A stretch of 31,618 nucleotides of DNA from Rickettsiales bacterium (GTDB lineage Bacteria > Pseudomonadota > Alphaproteobacteria > Rickettsiales > JANQQO01). The stretch is from contig JANQQO010000101.1 of the NCBI GenBank assembly GCA_028289305.1, forward strand, positions 1 through 31,618, written 5' to 3'. How positions within the stretch are numbered: position 1 is the first letter of the stretch; the number at the start of each line of letters is the position of its first letter. Below, piece after piece: positions 6,975 through 15,149 of the stretch. Made by a program: the position numbers and the translations under genes. The notes below the pieces were generated by a model. The model saw only the letters and a list, made by a program, of their open reading frames with translations. It was not told the DNA's origin and made no database searches.

Positions 6975-7424
6975 ATGGTGACGTTATTTGGATCATTGTT
7001 AGGATTTGTGAGTGCCACATTTCCTGATTTAATAAAGCTGTGGAGGGATGCAGCGGACCGCAAACATGAACTCACCATTTTACGCTTGCAAATGGAGCAG
7101 CAAGCGCAAGGCCATGCGCAACGTTTAGAAGAGATTCACGCACAAGCCGATATTGCCGAATCAAAAGCGCTCTATAAGACCTATTATTCCGGCATCAAAT
7201 GGGTGGATGCACTTAATGGTACGGTAAGGCCTGTGCTCGCCTATGCCTTTTTCTTTCTCTACTTCACCATCAAATGCATGCAATTTGTTATGGTTGATCT
7301 AACCGCTCCATTACCGTGGCACGTAGATATATTATGGTCGCAAGAAGATCAGGCTATTTTTGCCGGTATTATCAGTTTTTATTTTGGACAACGTGCCATG
7401 AATAAAGTGAGAAATGGAAAGTGA
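6975..7424 (+). CDS. 3-TM holin-like protein (GTA_holin_3TM-like)
   Basis: N-terminal hydrophobic segment, coiled-coil, 'DALNGTVRPVLAYAFF' and two further TMs; directly upstream of the lysozyme. Confidence 0.65.
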   Translation: MVTLFGSLLGFVSATFPDLIKLWRDAADRKHELTILRLQMEQQAQGHAQRLEEIHAQADIAESKALYKTYYSGIKWVDALNGTVRPVLAYAFFFLYFTIKCMQFVMVDLTAPLPWHVDILWSQEDQAIFAGIISFYFGQRAMNKVRNGK

Positions 7425-7855
7425 GACATATTACACAAACGGGGCTTGGTCTCATTAAGCGGTTTGAAGGGTTTAGGGATGCAATATATCTGGATGCTGT
7501 GGGTTTGCCTACTATTGGCTATGGTCATTTGATACGCGTAGATGAGGATTTTAGCCAAGGGATCACTGAACAGGAAGCGGAGATTCTATTGGCAAAAGAT
7601 GTGCGTACTGCAGAATACGCCGTGGTGCGGTTAATTGACGTGCCGCTGACCGACGGGCAATTTGATGCGTTGGTATCCTTTACCTTCAACCTTGGTTCCG
7701 GCGCATTGCAGCGTTCCACACTCCGCCGTAAGGTGAATCGCGAAGAACACGCCGAAGTGCCGCGTGAGCTGCTGCGCTGGGTTTGGGCTGGCGGAAAGAG
7801 ATTGAGGGGGTTAATGCGACGGAGGACGGCAGAGGGGAAGTTGTATGTAGTTTAA
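7421..7855 (+). CDS. GH24 phage lysozyme (endolysin)
   Basis: Catalytic E-x8-D-x5-T in 'FEGFRDAIYLDAVGLPTIGYGH'; 'QFDALVSFTFNLG', 'GLMRRRTAE'. Confidence 0.93.
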   Translation: MRHITQTGLGLIKRFEGFRDAIYLDAVGLPTIGYGHLIRVDEDFSQGITEQEAEILLAKDVRTAEYAVVRLIDVPLTDGQFDALVSFTFNLGSGALQRSTLRRKVNREEHAEVPRELLRWVWAGGKRLRGLMRRRTAEGKLYVV

Positions 7856-7860
7856 TATTT

Positions 7861-7889
7861 TTGGACTTTTTGGAATTACCCGATATGTT
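7861..7889 (+). promoter_or_regulatory. putative sigma70 promoter of nfeD-slipin
   Basis: TTGGAC (7861-7866) N17 TATGTT (7884-7889). Confidence 0.45.
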
Positions 7890-7922
7890 AGCGCCATGAC
7901 AGCATAGGGCTAAAGGTGTTAG

Positions 7923-9236
7923 ATGCTTAGGGTATTTCTCTTCATAACGTTATGTATTGGTATTGTTTTTAGCGCTTCTGCACGCGTTGCCATTGCAGAA
8001 GATTCCCCTAGGATTCTTTCTACGAGTATAAAAGGGCCTATAGGTATAGGAGCGGAGAGACATTTATTTCAAGCTATTGAGAAAGCAGAACAAGACGGCT
8101 ATACACTTTTAATCATACAGCTTGATACACCGGGAGGGCTGTACGACACCACCAGAAATATGGTTCAAGCCATACTAAACTCTCCGGTACCTATCACTGT
8201 ATACGTTGCTCCATCTGGTGCACATGCAGCAAGTGCAGGTTTTTTTCTAGTATATGCGGCTGATATAGCCGCCATGGCTCCTGCTACCAATCTAGGCTCT
8301 GCCACACCTATCAGTTTAGGGGGTAACAGTGATGTGATGCCGCAAAGAAGCCATGGAAAATCGGTATTAGAAAAGAAAGCATTAAACGACTCCATAGCTT
8401 TTATTAAGAGCTTAGCAGAAGAAAATGGCCGTAATGTGCAATATGCGATTAAAGGAGTCTTGGAGGCTCTAAATCTCTCAGCACAAGAAGCGCTAAAGCA
8501 TAACGTCATAAACATTATTGCCGAATCAGAAGAAATCTTACTGCAGAAGATTAATGGTACAAAAATCCGCATGGGTGAAAAAGAGCACGTTATAAATACG
8601 AAAGATGTCAGTATTGACTACTTTGAGCCTGATATGAGAACCGAAATTATTAAGATTCTTACAGACCCCAATATTATCTACATACTTCTCATGCTTGGCT
8701 TTTATGGTCTGCTTCTGGAATTTTATGCTCCAGGCACTTTTGTGCCGGGGGTTGTGGGGGCTATTTCCTTATGCGTTGCTTTGTGGGCAATGTCTATACT
8801 ACCCACAAATTATTTTGGTGTTGCTCTTATAGTTTTAGGTTTGTCCTTCATGGTGGCTGAGCTACACATTCCAAGCTTCGGCGTTCTTGGTATTGGAGGG
8901 TTGGTATGTTTAGGCTTCGGCTCGTATATGCTTTTTGATGATCCTTATTTTAAGGTTGACCCTACGTTTCTAGGAACATTTTTAGTGACCACCGCAATCA
9001 TTGTTTTTTTATTGGCAGGATACCTTGTTAAGGTTAATACACGGGCGAAAAAAACAGGAAAGGAAACAATGATTGGCCAGAAAGTAACCGTGATAAGCTG
9101 GGAAGGTGGAAAAGGTCAAGTAAAGTATCATGGTGAAATTTGGCAAGCAGAAGCAGCCGCAATGGATAAAAGAAAAATTAAAAAAGGCATGAGGCTTGCG
9201 ATTAAAAATATACGTGGTTTAACAATAAAGGTGTAG
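7923..9236 (+). CDS. nfeD: NfeD-family membrane-bound ClpP-class serine protease (long form)
   Basis: Signal peptide; 'LDTPGG', 'VAPSGAHAASAG', 'MAPATNLGSATP'; multi-TM middle region; C-terminal OB-like 'VKYHGEIWQA'. Confidence 0.92.
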   Translation: MLRVFLFITLCIGIVFSASARVAIAEDSPRILSTSIKGPIGIGAERHLFQAIEKAEQDGYTLLIIQLDTPGGLYDTTRNMVQAILNSPVPITVYVAPSGAHAASAGFFLVYAADIAAMAPATNLGSATPISLGGNSDVMPQRSHGKSVLEKKALNDSIAFIKSLAEENGRNVQYAIKGVLEALNLSAQEALKHNVINIIAESEEILLQKINGTKIRMGEKEHVINTKDVSIDYFEPDMRTEIIKILTDPNIIYILLMLGFYGLLLEFYAPGTFVPGVVGAISLCVALWAMSILPTNYFGVALIVLGLSFMVAELHIPSFGVLGIGGLVCLGFGSYMLFDDPYFKVDPTFLGTFLVTTAIIVFLLAGYLVKVNTRAKKTGKETMIGQKVTVISWEGGKGQVKYHGEIWQAEAAAMDKRKIKKGMRLAIKNIRGLTIKV

Positions 9237-9246
9237 AGGAGAAAGA

Positions 9247-10017
9247 ATGGACGATCCACTAAATATATCCATGGGATTCTGGGGAATGGCGACTATTGCC
9301 GTTTTTGTATTTATATTCATCACCAGTGGTATCCGTATCATGAAAGAGTATGAACGTGCAGTGGTTTATACTCTCGGGCGTTTTACATCCATTAAAGGTC
9401 CAGGACTAATTATTATCATCCCTGTTCTACAACAGGCTGTTAAAGTTGACATGCGTGTTAACGTCTTAGATGTGCCTCCGCAGGATGTTATATCAAAAGA
9501 TAACGTCTCTGTACGCGTAAATGCTGTTGTATACTACAAAGTTGTAGATTCTTTTAAGGCCATAAATGAAATTTCACACTTTCATGAAGCAACTAGCCAG
9601 TTAGCACAGACCACGTTACGTTCAATCCTCGGACAACATGAATTAGATGAAATGCTGTCTGAGAGAGATAAAATGAATGCCGATCTGCAAAAGATCCTGG
9701 ATAGCCAAACAGAGAACTGGGGTGTAAAAATTTCTAATGTTGAAATAAAACAGGTAGATTTGGATGAGTCGATGATTCGTGCTATTGCGAAGCAAGCAGA
9801 AGCTGAGCGTATTCGGCGAGCTAGGGTCATTGATGCAGAAGGAGAGTTCCAGGCAGCAGAAAAATTGAAACAAGCTGCCGGATTATTCAAAGGTAACCCT
9901 GAAGCGATGCAATTGCGTTATTTGTCAACATTGAGCAGCATTGCCGATGAAAAAAGCAGCACTATTGTATTTCCCTTCCCAACAAAAGGGTTAGAGAAAA
10001 TATTCGGACAGTCATAA
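9247..10017 (+). CDS. slipin / stomatin-like SPFH (band 7) protein
   Basis: 'EYERAVVYTLGR', 'PPQDVISKDNVSVRVNAVVY', 'SQLAQTTLRSILGQHELDEMLSER', 'MQLRYL.TL'; classic nfeD partner. Confidence 0.93.
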   Translation: MDDPLNISMGFWGMATIAVFVFIFITSGIRIMKEYERAVVYTLGRFTSIKGPGLIIIIPVLQQAVKVDMRVNVLDVPPQDVISKDNVSVRVNAVVYYKVVDSFKAINEISHFHEATSQLAQTTLRSILGQHELDEMLSERDKMNADLQKILDSQTENWGVKISNVEIKQVDLDESMIRAIAKQAEAERIRRARVIDAEGEFQAAEKLKQAAGLFKGNPEAMQLRYLSTLSSIADEKSSTIVFPFPTKGLEKIFGQS

Positions 10018-10068: not shown

Positions 10069-10101
10069 TTCATCGTTTCTTCATATGGCCTATGGTAGCT
10101 T
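10069..10101 (+). promoter_or_regulatory. OmpR-family tandem box TTCA-N7-TTCA plus extended -10, upstream of pepSY-RR-HK
   Basis: TTCATC gtttc TTCATA (10069-10085), 10 nt, TGG-TAGCTT (-10 at 10096-10101). Same geometry as 12459-12491. Confidence 0.65.
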
Positions 10102-10107
10102 GGGCAT

Positions 10108-10491
10108 ATGAAAGTCGTACATGTCACATGTATTATTTTGCTGCTTAGCCTTACAGTAAGCGCCCCTGTATCTGCTGCATGCGTAGGTAGTATATGCACA
10201 GGAGCAGGGCTCTCCGGTGGCATCATCTCTAATATCCAAGAACAATTTGATGGGCGTATTGTCGGCATCAATAAGCTGTTTGATGACGAAGAAAGCACGT
10301 GTGAACCTCGCACTTATGAAGTTATCATTGATGGGGATCCTCAAACTGCATACGGCGTTGCCTGCCTACAGCCTGACGGTACTTGGAAAATGCAGAATCA
10401 TTACGAGGTCCAGGTACTTAATGCTGAAGGCGAGATTTCTATTGTCACCGTAGATGGTAGTACGGGAAATATAGAAGAGGTGGAAGAGTGA
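10108..10491 (+). CDS. secreted PepSY-domain protein with a cysteine-bounded insert
   Basis: Signal peptide; PepSY halves 'NIQEQFDGRIVGINKL' and 'YEVQVLNAEGEISIVTVDGSTGNI'; PepSY genes commonly precede PhoPQ/FeuPQ-type pairs. Confidence 0.7.
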   Translation: MKVVHVTCIILLLSLTVSAPVSAACVGSICTGAGLSGGIISNIQEQFDGRIVGINKLFDDEESTCEPRTYEVIIDGDPQTAYGVACLQPDGTWKMQNHYEVQVLNAEGEISIVTVDGSTGNIEEVEE

Positions 10492-11153
10492 AGGTATTGA
10501 TTGTTGAAGACGATAAAGAAATAGCAAACCAGCTCTCAGACTACCTTACTGAACATGGTTTTGTTACCCAGACTTCCTATACAGGTGAAGATGGTCAGTT
10601 TGAAGGAAGTGCTGGTGAATATGATGCGGTCTTATTAGACATAGGGCTGCCAGAAATAGACGGACTCTCTATTTTGCGAGGATGGCGTGAAGATGGCATT
10701 AAAACGCCTGTTATTATTTTAACGGCGCGCACCAGTAAGATGGAAACAGTGCAGGGATTGGAGGCGGGTGCTGATGACTATATTCACAAACCATTTGATA
10801 TAGAAGAAGTTGTTGCCAGGCTGAGGGTTAATATTCGTCGATATAAAGGGCATACAGGCAATATACTAAAATACAAGAATGTTACACTGGATCATAATAC
10901 AGGTCGTATATCACGAGACGACCAATTCATAAAATTAACACGTACTGAATTTCTCATGACACAATATTTATTTTTGAACCAAGGGCGACCAATAAGTGCT
11001 AGTGAGCTTGCTGAACATGCCTATGATGATTTTGACAACGACTCTGGTATTATTGCTCGCCATATTGCGAATATACGAAAAAAACTAGGAACAGACGTTA
11101 TTAGAACGGAAACCAATCGAGGCTATTATGTTCCGTTGGATAAAGAATCCTAG
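10488..11153 (+). CDS. OmpR/PhoP-family response regulator (FeuP-like)
   Basis: 'VLIVEDD', phospho-Asp 'LLDIGLP', 'PVIILTAR', 'GADDYIHKPF', winged helix 'LTRTEF', 'TNRGY'. Confidence 0.95.
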   Translation: MKVLIVEDDKEIANQLSDYLTEHGFVTQTSYTGEDGQFEGSAGEYDAVLLDIGLPEIDGLSILRGWREDGIKTPVIILTARTSKMETVQGLEAGADDYIHKPFDIEEVVARLRVNIRRYKGHTGNILKYKNVTLDHNTGRISRDDQFIKLTRTEFLMTQYLFLNQGRPISASELAEHAYDDFDNDSGIIARHIANIRKKLGTDVIRTETNRGYYVPLDKES

Positions 11154-12450
11154 ATCACTCAAACAACACGTCGTTGTTATTTCCATCATTACTGCGCTGC
11201 TTCTTACCAGCCTCTCAGGTGTGGCAATTATCTGGTCGTTTCACCAATCGATGGATCGCTTATTATTAGGATACCTGACTGCATATAGTGATGTATTAAT
11301 AGCAGCAACCCGAATAGAAAATGGCAAGGTAATATTTAAAAATCCTCAGTCCCTTGCCAACTTACCGCGTTATTGGCAAGTCACCACCCCACAAAACCAT
11401 ATTGCAAAATCTCCTACGTTAAGCCGTTTTCTAGAGACAAAAAACAGAACGGCCTTTTTTACCTTTAAATCCCAAAATGGGGAGGAGATAGTGGCCATCA
11501 CAAAAACGGTTACTTTCCCAAGAAACGTAGAAGTTACCTATCTCTCAGGCATGCAGTCAGGCATTGCATTTGCGTTCCTCGAACAAGAAAAACAGGCATT
11601 TTACACCAAAATATCTATGGTATTAGGCGGGCTCATGATGGCGTTTATTCTGCTTTCTTTGCTTTACGTACACATTATCACAAGCCCATTTGAGCGCATA
11701 AAAAACGCCCTTAGTGATATACGTAGCAGCAAAAAGAAGCGTCTAGGGAAGGATTTTCCGAAAGAAATCCAGCCGATGGCCCATGAGATTAACATGCTGT
11801 TGGATTATAATAAGGGCATTATCGAACGCTATCAAACTTTTGCAGGCAATCTTTCTCATGCCCTTAAGACACCGCTTTCTGTACTGAAGAATGAAGCCTC
11901 TTCTTCAAAATCCACTTTGGCAAAAAAAGTACTAGAGAAGGTGGAAATCATGCAAAAACTTGTTGACCGCAATCTTGCACGAGTCAAAGCAACAGGTAAT
12001 ACAGGGATTTTAGGCGCTGATATTACGATATATCCCACCATCGCACGTATCGCAAAAAATTTTGGAAAACTACATAACAAAGTGGTCAAGACCGAAGGTG
12101 ATGAAAATCTGCGTTTTCAAGGAAATGACGGTGATCTATATGAAATGGTAGGCAATATCGTTGAAAACGCCTGCATATACGCATGCGAGTATGTGCACAT
12201 TACACTTACCGAAGAAGACGATGATATACATATTATTGTGGAAGATGATGGACCAGGCATACCAGAAGAAAAACAGTATGATATTTTGGGTCGTGGTACA
12301 CGTCTTGATGAAGCCACTCCTGGTACGGGTATCGGCCTGGCGATTACGCAAGACCTGGTAGAGCTATATGAAGGAAAGATAGTATTGGGAAAATCGACAT
12401 TAGGGGGATTGAAGGTAGCTGTGATTTTGCCTCAGTTGAATTTTGTATGA
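11128..12450 (+). CDS. sensor histidine kinase (PhoQ/FeuQ-like)
   Basis: Two TMs, HAMP 'FPKEIQPMAHEIN', H-box 'LSHALKTPL', N-box 'GNIVENA', G-boxes 'EDDGPGI', 'GTGIGL'. Confidence 0.95.
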   Translation: MFRWIKNPRSLKQHVVVISIITALLLTSLSGVAIIWSFHQSMDRLLLGYLTAYSDVLIAATRIENGKVIFKNPQSLANLPRYWQVTTPQNHIAKSPTLSRFLETKNRTAFFTFKSQNGEEIVAITKTVTFPRNVEVTYLSGMQSGIAFAFLEQEKQAFYTKISMVLGGLMMAFILLSLLYVHIITSPFERIKNALSDIRSSKKKRLGKDFPKEIQPMAHEINMLLDYNKGIIERYQTFAGNLSHALKTPLSVLKNEASSSKSTLAKKVLEKVEIMQKLVDRNLARVKATGNTGILGADITIYPTIARIAKNFGKLHNKVVKTEGDENLRFQGNDGDLYEMVGNIVENACIYACEYVHITLTEEDDDIHIIVEDDGPGIPEEKQYDILGRGTRLDEATPGTGIGLAITQDLVELYEGKIVLGKSTLGGLKVAVILPQLNFV

Positions 12451-12458
12451 ATTTTTTC

Positions 12459-12491
12459 TTCATCAAGCATTCAACCATGGGGTGGTATAAC
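12459..12491 (+). promoter_or_regulatory. second TTCA-N7-TTCA box plus extended -10, upstream of the OMP operon
   Basis: TTCATC aagca TTCAAC (12459-12475), 10 nt, TGG-TATAAC (-10 at 12486-12491). Confidence 0.65.
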
Positions 12492-12533: not shown

Positions 12534-13130
12534 ATGCGTTTACGTTCTTATGGATTAGCAGCGGGAATAGTTGCACTCTGCTTCGCTTCAGATGTGCAAG
12601 CAGCCAACAATAATGAACAAGAAGGTGCATATATAGCATTTAATACATTTGGAGTTTCACTAGGAGATCAGGACTTCACTGTTTCAGGTGCGGGCACAAC
12701 AGAACTGAGCTATGATTTTGGTTACGGCTTGGGCGCTGCTCTTGGGTATAGCTTTGGTAACGGAGTGCGGGCAGAAGGCGAGTTCGCATGGCGATCTAAT
12801 GAGCTAGATTCTTCAATCGCCAGTGGGGATCTAGATTCATTTGCAGGAATGGTTAATGGGTACTACGACATCCATAATACTAGCAAGTGGACACCCTATG
12901 TTGGTGCCGGTATAGGGCTGGCGCATGTAACAGATAGTGATGTTGATGACAATGTCTTTGCTTATCAAGGTATGGCCGGTGTTGGCTATACCGTATCGGA
13001 AACAAGCGACCTAGTGCTTGGCTATCGTTACTTTGCTACAGAAGACCCTGAATATACTATTTCTGGTAGTACCGTAGAAACGTCATACGACACACACAAC
13101 ATTGAAATTGCTTGGCGTTATAGATTCTAG
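12534..13130 (+). CDS. 8-stranded outer-membrane beta-barrel protein (OmpA-like/Omp25/Msp4-type)
   Basis: Signal peptide; 'GAALGYSFGNGVRAEGE', 'MVNGYYD', 'TPYVGAGIG', 'FAYQGMAGVGY'; terminal Phe 'RYRF'. Confidence 0.9.
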   Translation: MRLRSYGLAAGIVALCFASDVQAANNNEQEGAYIAFNTFGVSLGDQDFTVSGAGTTELSYDFGYGLGAALGYSFGNGVRAEGEFAWRSNELDSSIASGDLDSFAGMVNGYYDIHNTSKWTPYVGAGIGLAHVTDSDVDDNVFAYQGMAGVGYTVSETSDLVLGYRYFATEDPEYTISGSTVETSYDTHNIEIAWRYRF

Positions 13131-13161: not shown

Positions 13162-14403
13162 ATGCGACCCATTATCACCACATTAGCGCTACTGTTACTC
13201 TTACTCCTTGCTGGGTGTACGACAACACGGGATGTTAAGCCGCTCACGCATGTGGATCATGATTATGGGCAAACAGAAGATGAACAGCGCTTATTCAAAC
13301 GCTCACAGGAGACACATCAAGAACTCGAGAGAAAGGGATATATACTAAAAGACCCTGAGATAACGACGTATATTGAGCGTATCGCCCGTCCTTTAGTTCC
13401 TAAACAAGCAGCAAAAGCAGGCAATTTTAGGTTTTATGTGGTGCGCGACCCAACCGTTAATGCATTTGCTATGCCAAATGGGGGCATTTACTTACATCTT
13501 GGCTTACTCGCCCGTCTAGAAAATGAGCTACAACTTGCTCATTTATTAGCACATGAAATTACACATGTTGTCAAAAGACATGGCCTTAGAGGGTACGATG
13601 AAAGACGCTGGAAAACGACCACAGGAAACATCATGGGTGCATTTATAGGACCGACTCTAGGAGAGCTTCCTTTTGTGGCATCTATCGCTAGTCATAAGCG
13701 TGAATATGAAGAAGAGGCAGATGCTATGGCTTTAGATATACTTTCAAATAATGGATATAACATCACTAATGCGCCTGCGTTTTTTGATGTGCTAGAGGAG
13801 GTTAAAAACCCCGAACGTGTCGAGGGTTCTATCTGGAGCAGCCACCCAGACAGTAAAAAGCGTAAGGCAAGTGCTATAGCTATCGTACAAAGTGGTACCA
13901 TCGCCGTTAACCCAAAAGGAAGAGTGGGTAAGAAAGCATATGAGAAAGTGCGTACAAAATTGGTTAAGGCCAATCTTGATATGCAGCTGCTATCTAAACA
14001 CTATTCACTTGCATTGGAGGCGATAGATCGAGAACTTCGCTTCCACCCACAAGATGCCGAACTGTTCTACTATCGTGGCGAAGTATTTCACCGTATGTTT
14101 TCTGACCCTGAAGGTGCGGCACAAGAATATGCCTGGCTTTACGACAAAACCTTTGATGACGAGTTAAAGAAAAAGTTCACACAACGGAAGGGTGAGTTTT
14201 CTCGCGGTGCTCACCAAGCTTATAATAAAGCAATTAAGCTTAATGGTATAACAAACGCATATAGAGGTAAGGGGCTTTTGGCATATAAACAAAAACAATT
14301 TTCTGACGCCATTCCACTACTAGAGCATTATTTATCACACGGTAAAAATATTCGTGATCGTCGTTATATCACCCGTATTATTCAGGAGATGAGGAAGACA
14401 TGA
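13162..14403 (+). CDS. M48-family zinc metalloprotease lipoprotein with C-terminal TPR-like region (BepA-like)
   Basis: Lipobox LAGC; 'VNAFAMPNGGIY..GLL', HEXXH 'LAHEITH', 'EEEAD', 'SSHP'; helical repeats at the C-terminus. Confidence 0.88.
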   Translation: MRPIITTLALLLLLLLAGCTTTRDVKPLTHVDHDYGQTEDEQRLFKRSQETHQELERKGYILKDPEITTYIERIARPLVPKQAAKAGNFRFYVVRDPTVNAFAMPNGGIYLHLGLLARLENELQLAHLLAHEITHVVKRHGLRGYDERRWKTTTGNIMGAFIGPTLGELPFVASIASHKREYEEEADAMALDILSNNGYNITNAPAFFDVLEEVKNPERVEGSIWSSHPDSKKRKASAIAIVQSGTIAVNPKGRVGKKAYEKVRTKLVKANLDMQLLSKHYSLALEAIDRELRFHPQDAELFYYRGEVFHRMFSDPEGAAQEYAWLYDKTFDDELKKKFTQRKGEFSRGAHQAYNKAIKLNGITNAYRGKGLLAYKQKQFSDAIPLLEHYLSHGKNIRDRRYITRIIQEMRKT

Positions 14404-15149
14404 AAAAATATGCATATATCATTCTCTTACTATTCCTGACAACCGCATGCGGCACCGTAGAACGACGTCACCCTGCTTTTGATGATGCTTTTAAGAAATA
14501 TCATTCTGTTGCTATTTTACCGCCTGAAGTAACAGTAAAATACGTGCAGTTTGATGGAGATAACAAGCGTCTCTCAGAACTTGAAGGGCGTATTACACAG
14601 GAGTTGTTTCAAGAAACCGCAAAGCTATTACAAGAGAAAAAATATAGAGTGTTGCCATTTAACTTTGAGGAAGCGTTCCGACAGCACGACGGTTTAAGCT
14701 TTGAGTTCGAAAAACTAAAATCCATCCATACGTCTCTCATACAAGAAATATACCCCGACTATAGTGTGAGCTTACAAAAATCGGTTGAAGAGGCGTATGC
14801 AACAAAAAAGAGTGTAGGACCCATTGTGAACCAATTTGCCGATATGGCCAACGCCGATATGTTGCTAATAACTAATTATAACGGATTTGAGAAATCAAGT
14901 GGTCTGATTGCAAAGGACATAATTTTTCGTACTGTTCTGCACTCTGTTACAAATAGTTATGGTGGCCCCTCCGATATAGGAGGAGGAAGGCTCGTTGCTG
15001 CACTGCTAGATGGCACCACGGGCGATATATTATGGGTAAATATCGGTAGTGAGTTATACCATCCTCCCTTTACAGGAGAGCTTGGTGCAAAAGACGCCGT
15101 AGAAATGGCGTTAGAGCCCTTGCCAGAGAGAACACCACCACCCCGATAA
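14400..15149 (+). CDS. lipoprotein of unknown function (CsgG/LpoB-like fold suspected)
   Basis: Lipobox TTAC; 'SVAILPP', 'ADMLLIT', 'LLDGTTGDILW'; ATGA overlap with the M48 gene. Confidence 0.7.
   Translation: MKKYAYIILLLFLTTACGTVERRHPAFDDAFKKYHSVAILPPEVTVKYVQFDGDNKRLSELEGRITQELFQETAKLLQEKKYRVLPFNFEEAFRQHDGLSFEFEKLKSIHTSLIQEIYPDYSVSLQKSVEEAYATKKSVGPIVNQFADMANADMLLITNYNGFEKSSGLIAKDIIFRTVLHSVTNSYGGPSDIGGGRLVAALLDGTTGDILWVNIGSELYHPPFTGELGAKDAVEMALEPLPERTPPPR

Follow-up and report, generated by a model that had tools for sequence, protein, structure and literature searches.

The window, by which we mean the whole stretch of DNA that was analysed (31,618 nucleotides, or 31.6 kb), carries an open reading frame at 10108..10491 on the + strand that encodes a 127-amino-acid secreted protein, P0001. 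The gene lies directly 5' of a two-component system, and the central string quoted in the initial annotation corresponds to residues 65-95 of this real reading frame. The features discussed below are the following.

10069-10083, + strand: TTCA-N7-TTCA direct repeat (the box), within a promoter region that spans 10069..10101
10093-10101, + strand: TGG-TAGCTT extended -10-like element, 3' of the box
10108..10491, + strand: open reading frame of P0001, 127 amino acids
10108..10176, + strand: signal peptide, residues 1-23, ending in VSA (residues 21-23), read from the sequence
10180..10197, + strand: N-terminal cysteine pair CVGSIC (C25 and C30), residues 25-30, in a linker with pLDDT <60
10210..10281, + strand: N-terminal PepSY-like part, residues 35-58 (helix 37-47, β1 49-57), from hhalign, BLASTP and AF2
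10282..10398, + strand: inserted hairpin, residues ~59-97 (boundaries +/-4), from hhalign, BLASTP, the gap in the G037 orthologue and the deletion in P0020
10300-10302, + strand: C65, at the base of the hairpin
10363-10365, + strand: C86, at the base of the hairpin
10399..10491, + strand: C-terminal PepSY-like part, residues 98-127, plus the stop codon, from Pfam, hhalign and AF2
10488..11153, + strand: OmpR/PmrA-type response regulator gene (Pfam Response_reg and Trans_reg_C)
11128..12450, + strand: PhoQ-like sensor histidine kinase gene (Pfam HisKA and HATPase_c), overlapping the regulator gene
12459-12473, + strand: second TTCA-N7-TTCA box, 5' of the barrel gene
12534-13130, + strand: small outer-membrane beta-barrel gene (Pfam OMP_b-brl and Surface_Ag_2)

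In its strict form, the box occurs on the + strand of the window only at 10069 and 12459. No sigma-70 -35/-10 pair was found at the P0001 promoter. The ATG begins 6 nt past the -10-like element, so the P0001 transcript probably starts with a very short leader or none at all. The box is conserved along with the gene, lying 39-43 nt 5' of the true ATG in the genomes G034, G141 and G142 and in most of the nine metagenome loci checked; the exceptions are G035, where it has one mismatch, and L058, where it lies 165 nt upstream. The N-termini of three of these proteins had been over-extended by gene callers.

The stop codon of the P0001 gene (TGA) overlaps the GTG start of the regulator gene, as GTGA, and the regulator is translationally coupled to it. 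The best NCBIfam matches of the regulator are PmrA and QseB, both below their cut-offs. For the kinase, the NCBIfam PhoQ model matches residues 163-435; neither the kinase nor the regulator reaches its respective equivalog cut-off, PhoQ or PhoP. The kinase orthologues, which are found in only 4 of 41 relatives, carry HAMP_PhoQ, and the periplasmic sensor domain of the kinase, of ~125 amino acids (residues ~38-165), has no Pfam match.

The second box precedes the small barrel gene, which is probably a member of the regulon. A similar small barrel gene is the next co-oriented gene 3' of the kinase in G141, ~640 nt away and without a box. In four lineages (G034, G037, L062 and L064), the gene directly 3' of the kinase is instead that of a canonical 17-kDa antigen with its own box. 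The 17-kDa gene of the window genome lacks a box and lies on a different contig.

The operon is conserved. A response-regulator-type gene lies directly 3' of the P0001-family gene in G000, G034, G035 and G141 and in nine metagenome loci, and a kinase with a PhoQ-type HAMP domain comes next wherever the contig continues. G142 is arranged differently, in that the P0001-family gene is 88 kb from the regulator and kinase genes; it keeps the box and adjoins a DsbB-like gene. The window genome encodes DsbB and two DsbA-like proteins. Canonical PepSY genes precede a regulator and kinase in eight of nine other alphaproteobacterial loci, where seven of the regulators are 37-47% identical to that of the window and the eighth is 32% identical. 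Since canonical PepSY genes also precede a related regulator and kinase, the P0001 family is a lineage-specific version of a widespread module.

The leader of P0001 forms a hydrophobic helix at residues 4-15 in the AF2 model, and the homologues have N-terminal hydrophobic leaders of comparable type. The enzyme that cleaves the leader is more likely to be signal peptidase I. The SAAC that follows the leader fits only a permissive lipobox, and the homologues have no lipobox; from this we infer a soluble periplasmic protein. For the same reason, we considered C25 unlikely to be a lipoprotein cysteine. The second cysteine pair reported in the initial annotation, CVGSIC, is indeed present just after the signal peptide, at residues 25-30, and a C-x4-5-C pair is found at the same place in 7 of the 19 family members, including one that lacks the hairpin (P0020).

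The remainder of the mature protein was initially annotated as a PepSY fold split by a second domain. Pfam on its own gives weak, sub-threshold evidence for the PepSY half of this claim. Against the PepSY profile (PF03413; gathering threshold 24 bits), P0001 scores 14.4 bits (E 0.047), with residues 90-126 on profile positions 27-60, and the sub-threshold scores of Myco_19_kDa and CsgF are similar. None of the 19 members reaches the PepSY cut-off, ten match below it (best E 0.0015, ~19 bits), and the insert-free orthologue from G037 has no Pfam PepSY match.

Profile-profile comparison supports the claim. We divided an alignment of the 19 family sequences into flanks and insert, and as the PepSY reference for hhalign we used ten above-threshold PepSY domains from other Alphaproteobacteria. 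The mature region matches this reference at 97.5% (score 58.9) over positions 5-58 of 58, and the gaps in the match fall at residues 59-88 and 94-97 (30 plus 4 residues). On the N-terminal side, residues 35-58 align with PepSY positions 5-25, and BLASTP aligns the same residues with the insert-free G037 orthologue. The initial annotation had suggested scoring the segments separately, and they do part as it proposed, with the flanks alone matching PepSY at 97.7% and the insert at 0.8%. The flanks match the C-termini of 17-kDa antigens at 1.7%, and reversed and column-shuffled controls scored 16 or less. An HMM built from the flanks only ranked the family first among 1510 ORFs of the fetched loci, with the insert-free G037 orthologue at 8.6e-16; the family was followed by seven canonical PepSY ORFs at 1.4e-7 to 0.04, and noise began at E=2. 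Judged by these comparisons, the core of P0001 is best described as a divergent PepSY domain, with a helix plus four strands.

The insert has a different origin. Compared by hhalign with 27 Rickettsiales 17-kDa C-termini, it matches at 99.3% (score 90) over 36 columns that correspond to the final 36 antigen residues, whereas 30 column shuffles reached 14.7 at most. In BLASTP, residues 65-96 of P0001 pair with residues 132-163 of the canonical 17-kDa paralogue from its own genome (38% identity, E 1e-7). A further 254 Rickettsiales genomes match residues ~58-100 of the query only, at the C-termini of frames of 160-200 amino acids; 27 of these frames were read from fetched loci, and all are 17-kDa-type lipoproteins. 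The claim that P0001 contains a 17-kDa antigen hairpin thus stands, under a different family name. No NCBIfam model named RT0821/Lpp0805, as in the initial annotation, matched P0001, its residues 60-100 or the 17-kDa paralogues, and NCBIfam gave no relevant match to the whole protein, to the insert or to hairpin-only proteins. The curated family that covers the hairpin motif is Pfam PF16998 (17kDa_Anti_2; gathering threshold 26.6 bits, ~116 positions). P0001 itself has no PF16998 match in Pfam, and 7 of the 19 members match below threshold (best E 6.6e-4), at profile positions ~67-113 only.

What P0001 shares with the 17-kDa antigen is the C-terminal Cys...Cys-x3-DGxW hairpin, with the motif C-R-E-x4-I-x-I/V-G-x(5-7)-G-x-A-C-x3-D-G-x-W and equal spacing of the cysteines. 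Unlike the antigen, it covers no more than roughly the final third of PF16998, without the N-terminal half, and it lacks both the lipobox and the glycine zipper (PF05433), for which Pfam finds no match in P0001 or any other family member. The 17-kDa paralogue in the same genome has both a lipoprotein signal and a glycine zipper; the latter gave a weak match to SlyB in a search of PDB sequences. The hairpin of P0001 also differs from that of the antigen in being internal instead of C-terminal and in evolving much faster. We considered whether the N-terminal half of P0001 might be wholly a 17-kDa domain, as the hhalign match of the insert to the antigens reaches 13 columns into β1, and rejected this, given that the G037 orthologue keeps β1 without the hairpin and that the flanks score 1.7% against the antigens.

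The two hairpin cysteines co-vary: 18 of the 19 members have both Cys65 and Cys86, P0020 has neither, and the PepSY scaffold has no other cysteine. A Cys65-Cys86 disulfide is predicted to staple the base of the hairpin. Residue 65 would lie opposite residue 86 (i+j=151), a pairing taken from the strand limits and register rather than from coordinates.

The 17-kDa hairpin is a self-contained, portable module that turns up in several arrangements. The antigens end with it, P0009, P0010 and P0025 have tandem copies, in L005-type proteins it is all that follows a signal peptide, and the P0001 family carries it internally. A tree of the hairpins has too few columns to reject or prove a single origin of the inserted copies (p-AU 0.5).

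The initial annotation had looked to an AlphaFold model of the monomer as a check on the split fold. From the single sequence, the AF2 model was poor (pLDDT 59), but with the 19-sequence alignment the pLDDT rose to 84.7 and was >86 through the mature domain. The elements follow in the order helix, β1, long hairpin, short strand and three strands, an order that fits the PepSY fold, in which one helix packs on an antiparallel sheet of four strands. The hairpin strands, 65-74 and 77-87, enclose a D75-G76 turn and are followed by the short strand at 93-95, and the strands of the C-terminal part are 98-105, 110-116 and 122-126 (pLDDT 94-97).

In structure comparison with VIA-align, which does not depend on Foldseek, ranks 1-5 and 12 are PepSY/BLIP-like structures: 4fr9 (BF1215), 4exr (CD1622), 2gu3 (YpmB), 7atk (UipA), 3u1w and 5boi (YpeB). 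Between 54 and 59 residues align over model residues 30/34-127, which corresponds to both flanks minus ~37 residues, and the flanks superpose on YpmB, YpeB, UipA, BF1215 and CD1622 at 1.9-3.0 Å. The Z scores are modest (5.5-7.0), in a range that the tool calls common for unmatched models. None of these structures has an insertion in this loop, and the functions of the proteins differ, from spore germination and metal binding to protease propeptides. Among the matches listed from ESM-Atlas, PepSY clusters take the top row and several more (rmsd 2.1-2.2 Å, 55-60 residues), and a 17-kDa glycine-zipper cluster appears lower, over residues 36-102.

PepSY structures lead these lists over the flanks, but no Z score exceeds 7.0 and Foldseek against the PDB gave nothing significant (best E 0.17, with YpmB and a vibriolysin propeptide among the weak matches). 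An ESM-Atlas feature search gave weak leads only (scores 0.81 or less), and no meaningful match came from the PDB by sequence, whether the query was P0001, the family profile, the 17-kDa paralogue or the insert-free orthologue. The structure scores are thus modest; they agree with the sequence evidence and do not stand alone.

The family is small and diverged. A search of related genomes found full-length homologues in G034, G035, G141 and G142, at 33-38% identity. With the window genome included, the family occurs in 5 of 400 sampled Rickettsiales genomes; 400 genomes of other Alphaproteobacteria yielded no full-length match. An exhaustive phmmer search of 1.8 billion representatives yielded ~18 full-length relatives, which makes ~19 representatives in all, diverged to 22-42% identity with P0001; a word-indexed protein search returned only the query itself. 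Of ten relatives that we looked up, nine were nameless and one was a "hypothetical protein" from a Rickettsiaceae MAG; no database source gave the family a name.

Two natural variants bear on whether the hairpin is truly an insertion, as initially claimed, and both argue that it is. In G037, one of the four relatives with the kinase orthologue, a 95-amino-acid orthologue of P0001 lies 5' of the orthologous regulator and kinase genes and aligns to both flanks across a 38-residue gap, with a short turn at the position of the hairpin. The metagenomic P0020 keeps the flanks, is 17 residues shorter and lacks both hairpin cysteines. In a regulator tree, the regulators that accompany the hairpin-bearing, insert-free and Cys-less forms make up one clade with 100/100 support, separate from the regulators that follow canonical PepSY genes. 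The tree does not distinguish ancestral absence from secondary loss for the G037 insert-free and P0020 Cys-less forms.

The closest characterized system is that of Vibrio cholerae, in which the Sec-secreted single-PepSY protein DbfQ is encoded 5' of dbfRS, forms a 1:1 complex with the DbfS sensor domain (Kd 30 nM), and shifts the kinase to phosphatase activity (PMC12714742). The dbfQRS operon is positively autoregulated, and modules that combine PepSY proteins with two-component systems are widespread, as with PA2658/PA2659, which are encoded 5' of BqsRS in Pseudomonas aeruginosa (PMC12714742). Like DbfQ and PA2658/PA2659, P0001 is small, Sec-secreted, built on a single PepSY-type domain and encoded 5' of an OmpR-family regulator and a kinase, and like dbfQRS its operon is apparently autoregulated. 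Unlike DbfQ, P0001 has a PepSY domain too divergent for the Pfam cut-off and a disulfide hairpin of ~37 residues in the β1-β2 loop, and some members of its family add the N-terminal C-x4-5-C pair. Its kinase is PhoQ-like with a sensor domain of no known family, and whereas binding was measured for DbfQ, here we infer it.

On the precedent of DbfQ, we propose that P0001 is probably a secreted PepSY-type modulator of the adjacent kinase, with a 17-kDa-type hairpin inserted in its β1-β2 loop. Produced under the system's own TTCA-N7-TTCA promoter, it would act as a periplasmic accessory of the two-component system. Its PepSY core would most likely bind the periplasmic sensor domain of the PhoQ-like kinase and, by analogy with DbfQ, bias the enzyme between its kinase and phosphatase states. 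The initial annotation had read the protein in much the same way, as a kinase modulator; conserved synteny and the DbfQ-DbfS precedent (PMC12714742) favor that reading, and the binding step is taken from the analogy.

The hairpin, ~37 residues long and presumably stapled at its base by Cys65-Cys86, probably supplies the modulator with a second interaction surface. What this surface binds is more speculative, as is the earlier suggestion that the hairpin serves in ligand, redox or envelope sensing. Because the box precedes either a 17-kDa antigen gene or the gene of a small outer-membrane barrel, our favored guess is that the hairpin couples control of the kinase to the state of outer-membrane proteins that the system itself regulates.

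The alternative that fares best is that the hairpin is structural elaboration only: it would lengthen the PepSY sheet or enlarge the surface that contacts the kinase, without a partner of its own, and its link to the 17-kDa antigen would be one of common descent only. We regard this as a fair-sized minority possibility. The fusion hairpins evolve fast, and the positions they keep are mainly structural (the two cysteines, alternating isoleucines, the turn glycine and DGxW), whereas surface positions that are near-invariant in the 17-kDa antigens (Y, Q and QP) have drifted. This pattern favors a generic structural or interface role. Moreover, since insert-free and Cys-less forms are found in the same type of operon, the system evidently works without the hairpin. 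However, elaboration alone does not readily account for the retention of the hairpin and its cysteine pair in 18 of the 19 representatives despite 22-42% identity, and it leaves the boxed 17-kDa gene beside the operon in four lineages as coincidence.

That adjacency is instead the starting point for a second alternative, in which the hairpin mimics a product of the system. It might bind the partner of the 17-kDa C-terminal module or pair with that module itself, such that the amount or placement of the lipoprotein titrates the modulator on or off the kinase. Such a circuit would resemble lipoprotein-based envelope surveillance and the feedback of SlyB on PhoPQ. PhoP activates SlyB, which in turn can act back on PhoPQ, negatively in some bacteria (PMC11825808). 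The operon resembles PhoPQ-SlyB in having a PhoQ-like kinase beside a gene for a lipoprotein with a SlyB-type glycine zipper, preceded by the putative operator of the system. The resemblance has limits, as the kinase and regulator here fall short of the PhoQ/PhoP equivalog cut-offs, the enterobacterial circuit has no PepSY accessory protein, and feedback in our case is hypothetical.

The adjacency of the boxed 17-kDa genes and the parallel to PhoP-activated SlyB keep a feedback or mimicry role alive, and the behavior of the hairpin as a shuffled module, with tandem copies in other proteins, is in line with it. Against it, the fusion hairpins have drifted away from the antigens at surface positions, and the 17-kDa gene of the window genome is boxless and lies on a separate contig. 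G037, which has the adjacent boxed antigen gene and a modulator that lacks the hairpin, also speaks against any strict need for the hairpin. We consider mimicry rather unlikely, and marginally more so its more specific form, a product-mimicry feedback sensor in which the hairpin is a recognition module through which the modulator reads the abundance or placement of 17-kDa-type outer-membrane lipoproteins, themselves products of the modulator's regulon, and relays it to the kinase.

A third alternative is redox control, in which the modulator would be active only once DsbA/DsbB had formed Cys65-Cys86, and perhaps the N-terminal disulfide, so that kinase output would report the redox state of the periplasm. 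In its favor are the strict co-occurrence of the hairpin cysteines, the further C-x4-5-C pair in 7 of the 19 members, and the dsb genes noted above, including the DsbB-like neighbor in G142. Yet the same disulfide hairpin is found in hundreds of 17-kDa antigens, where it is apparently structural, most members lack the N-terminal pair, and P0020 and the G037 orthologue have no hairpin cysteines, which makes a sensor of oxidative folding quite improbable.

Least probable of all is that P0001 is no kinase modulator but an independent secreted or surface protein (an antigen or metal binder) that is merely co-transcribed, for although some PepSY proteins bind metals (UipA, lanpepsy), the G142 gene is separated from the regulator and kinase genes, and kinase binding comes by analogy, this reading is opposed by the translational coupling to the regulator gene in the window, by synteny that is near-universal across diverged members, with the G142 copy keeping its box, and by the experimental precedent of DbfQ (PMC12714742).

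Both parts of the chimera were already known, as was the module of PepSY protein plus two-component system; what is new is the insertion and its link to this operon. The initial annotation knew of no description of the fusion, and our literature searches at the title and abstract level, which combined PepSY with "17 kDa", the Pfam family name, and PepSY with domain insertion, likewise found none. PepSY accessory proteins have only recently been shown to control sensor kinases directly, and the origin of their signal specificity is at issue. Within one orthologous operon, the P0001 family offers a natural series of insert-free, Cys-less and disulfide-hairpin forms, which lends itself to reconstitution and side-by-side comparison at the bench.

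The finding also ties the C-terminal hairpin of the 17-kDa antigen to a two-component system that regulates the envelope. The antigen is widely used in Rickettsia diagnostics, and we know of no established molecular function for it; were the mimicry sensor true, it would be the first functional handle on this conserved hairpin. The family has few members and does not extend beyond uncultured Rickettsiales, so we see in it a helpful model case and not a general principle. The DNA of the window itself is of coral metagenome origin.

The strict TTCA-N7-TTCA box occurs on the + strand of the window at two promoters only, one ahead of the modulator gene and one ahead of the small outer-membrane beta-barrel gene.

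Window 10069-10101, + strand: TTCA-N7-TTCA box, then a -10-like element, before the modulator gene
Window 12459-12491, + strand: TTCA-N7-TTCA box promoter, the second of the two strict boxes

At most of the loci checked, the box at the modulator gene lies 39-43 nt ahead of the true ATG and is followed by a -10-like element (loci listed for this box are the window and fetched loci L066, L068, L019, L058-L065 and L075-L077). This spacing implies that the mRNAs would be leaderless or near-leaderless. For three family members, P0020 (L061), P0011 (L062) and P0015 (L075), the public gene calls begin too far upstream. The conserved box falls within, or just ahead of, the called ORF at these three loci, and a normal signal peptide is obtained from an internal ATG in each protein.

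The box is retained in G142, a relative in which 88 kb separate the modulator gene (L019 1384-1785) from the genes for its regulator and kinase; a DsbB-like gene (L019 2091-2612) follows the modulator gene by about 300 nt.

The gene immediately 3' of the kinase gene encodes a canonical 17-kDa antigen lipoprotein in four lineages, and in each of them it carries a TTCA-N7-TTCA box of its own.

L066 2794-3387: boxed 17-kDa antigen gene
L072 849-1460, - strand: boxed 17-kDa antigen gene
L062 4501-4980: boxed 17-kDa antigen gene
L064 3306-3794: boxed 17-kDa antigen gene

Repeated ATGAAT(T) motifs, which include the reverse complement of the TTCA half-site, are found upstream of this box in all but L064. 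No TTCA-N7-TTCA box accompanies the 17-kDa gene of the genome from which the window comes (L002 1498-1995, - strand).

As a shuffled module, the Cys hairpin also turns up outside the modulator: on its own after a signal peptide and followed by a His/Arg/Tyr-rich tail, repeated three times in tandem, or added in extra copies to a 17-kDa antigen (examples are L005 1414-1842; L012, L016 and L034; and proteins P0009, P0010 and P0025).

Directly 5' of the modulator gene (window 7421-10017) are a phage-type lysozyme-like ORF and then NfeD membrane protease and SPFH/Band-7 genes (Pfam NfeD_membrane and Band_7), which form a typical NfeD-stomatin pair. An M48 peptidase gene with TPR repeats lies 3' of the barrel gene (window 13162-15149), followed by a gene whose 249-aa product belongs to no Pfam family. 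Elsewhere, the 342-aa protein P0021 contains four near-identical tandem PepSY repeats; it matches the C-terminal half of the modulator query, and its repeats also yield many spurious-looking Pfam matches.
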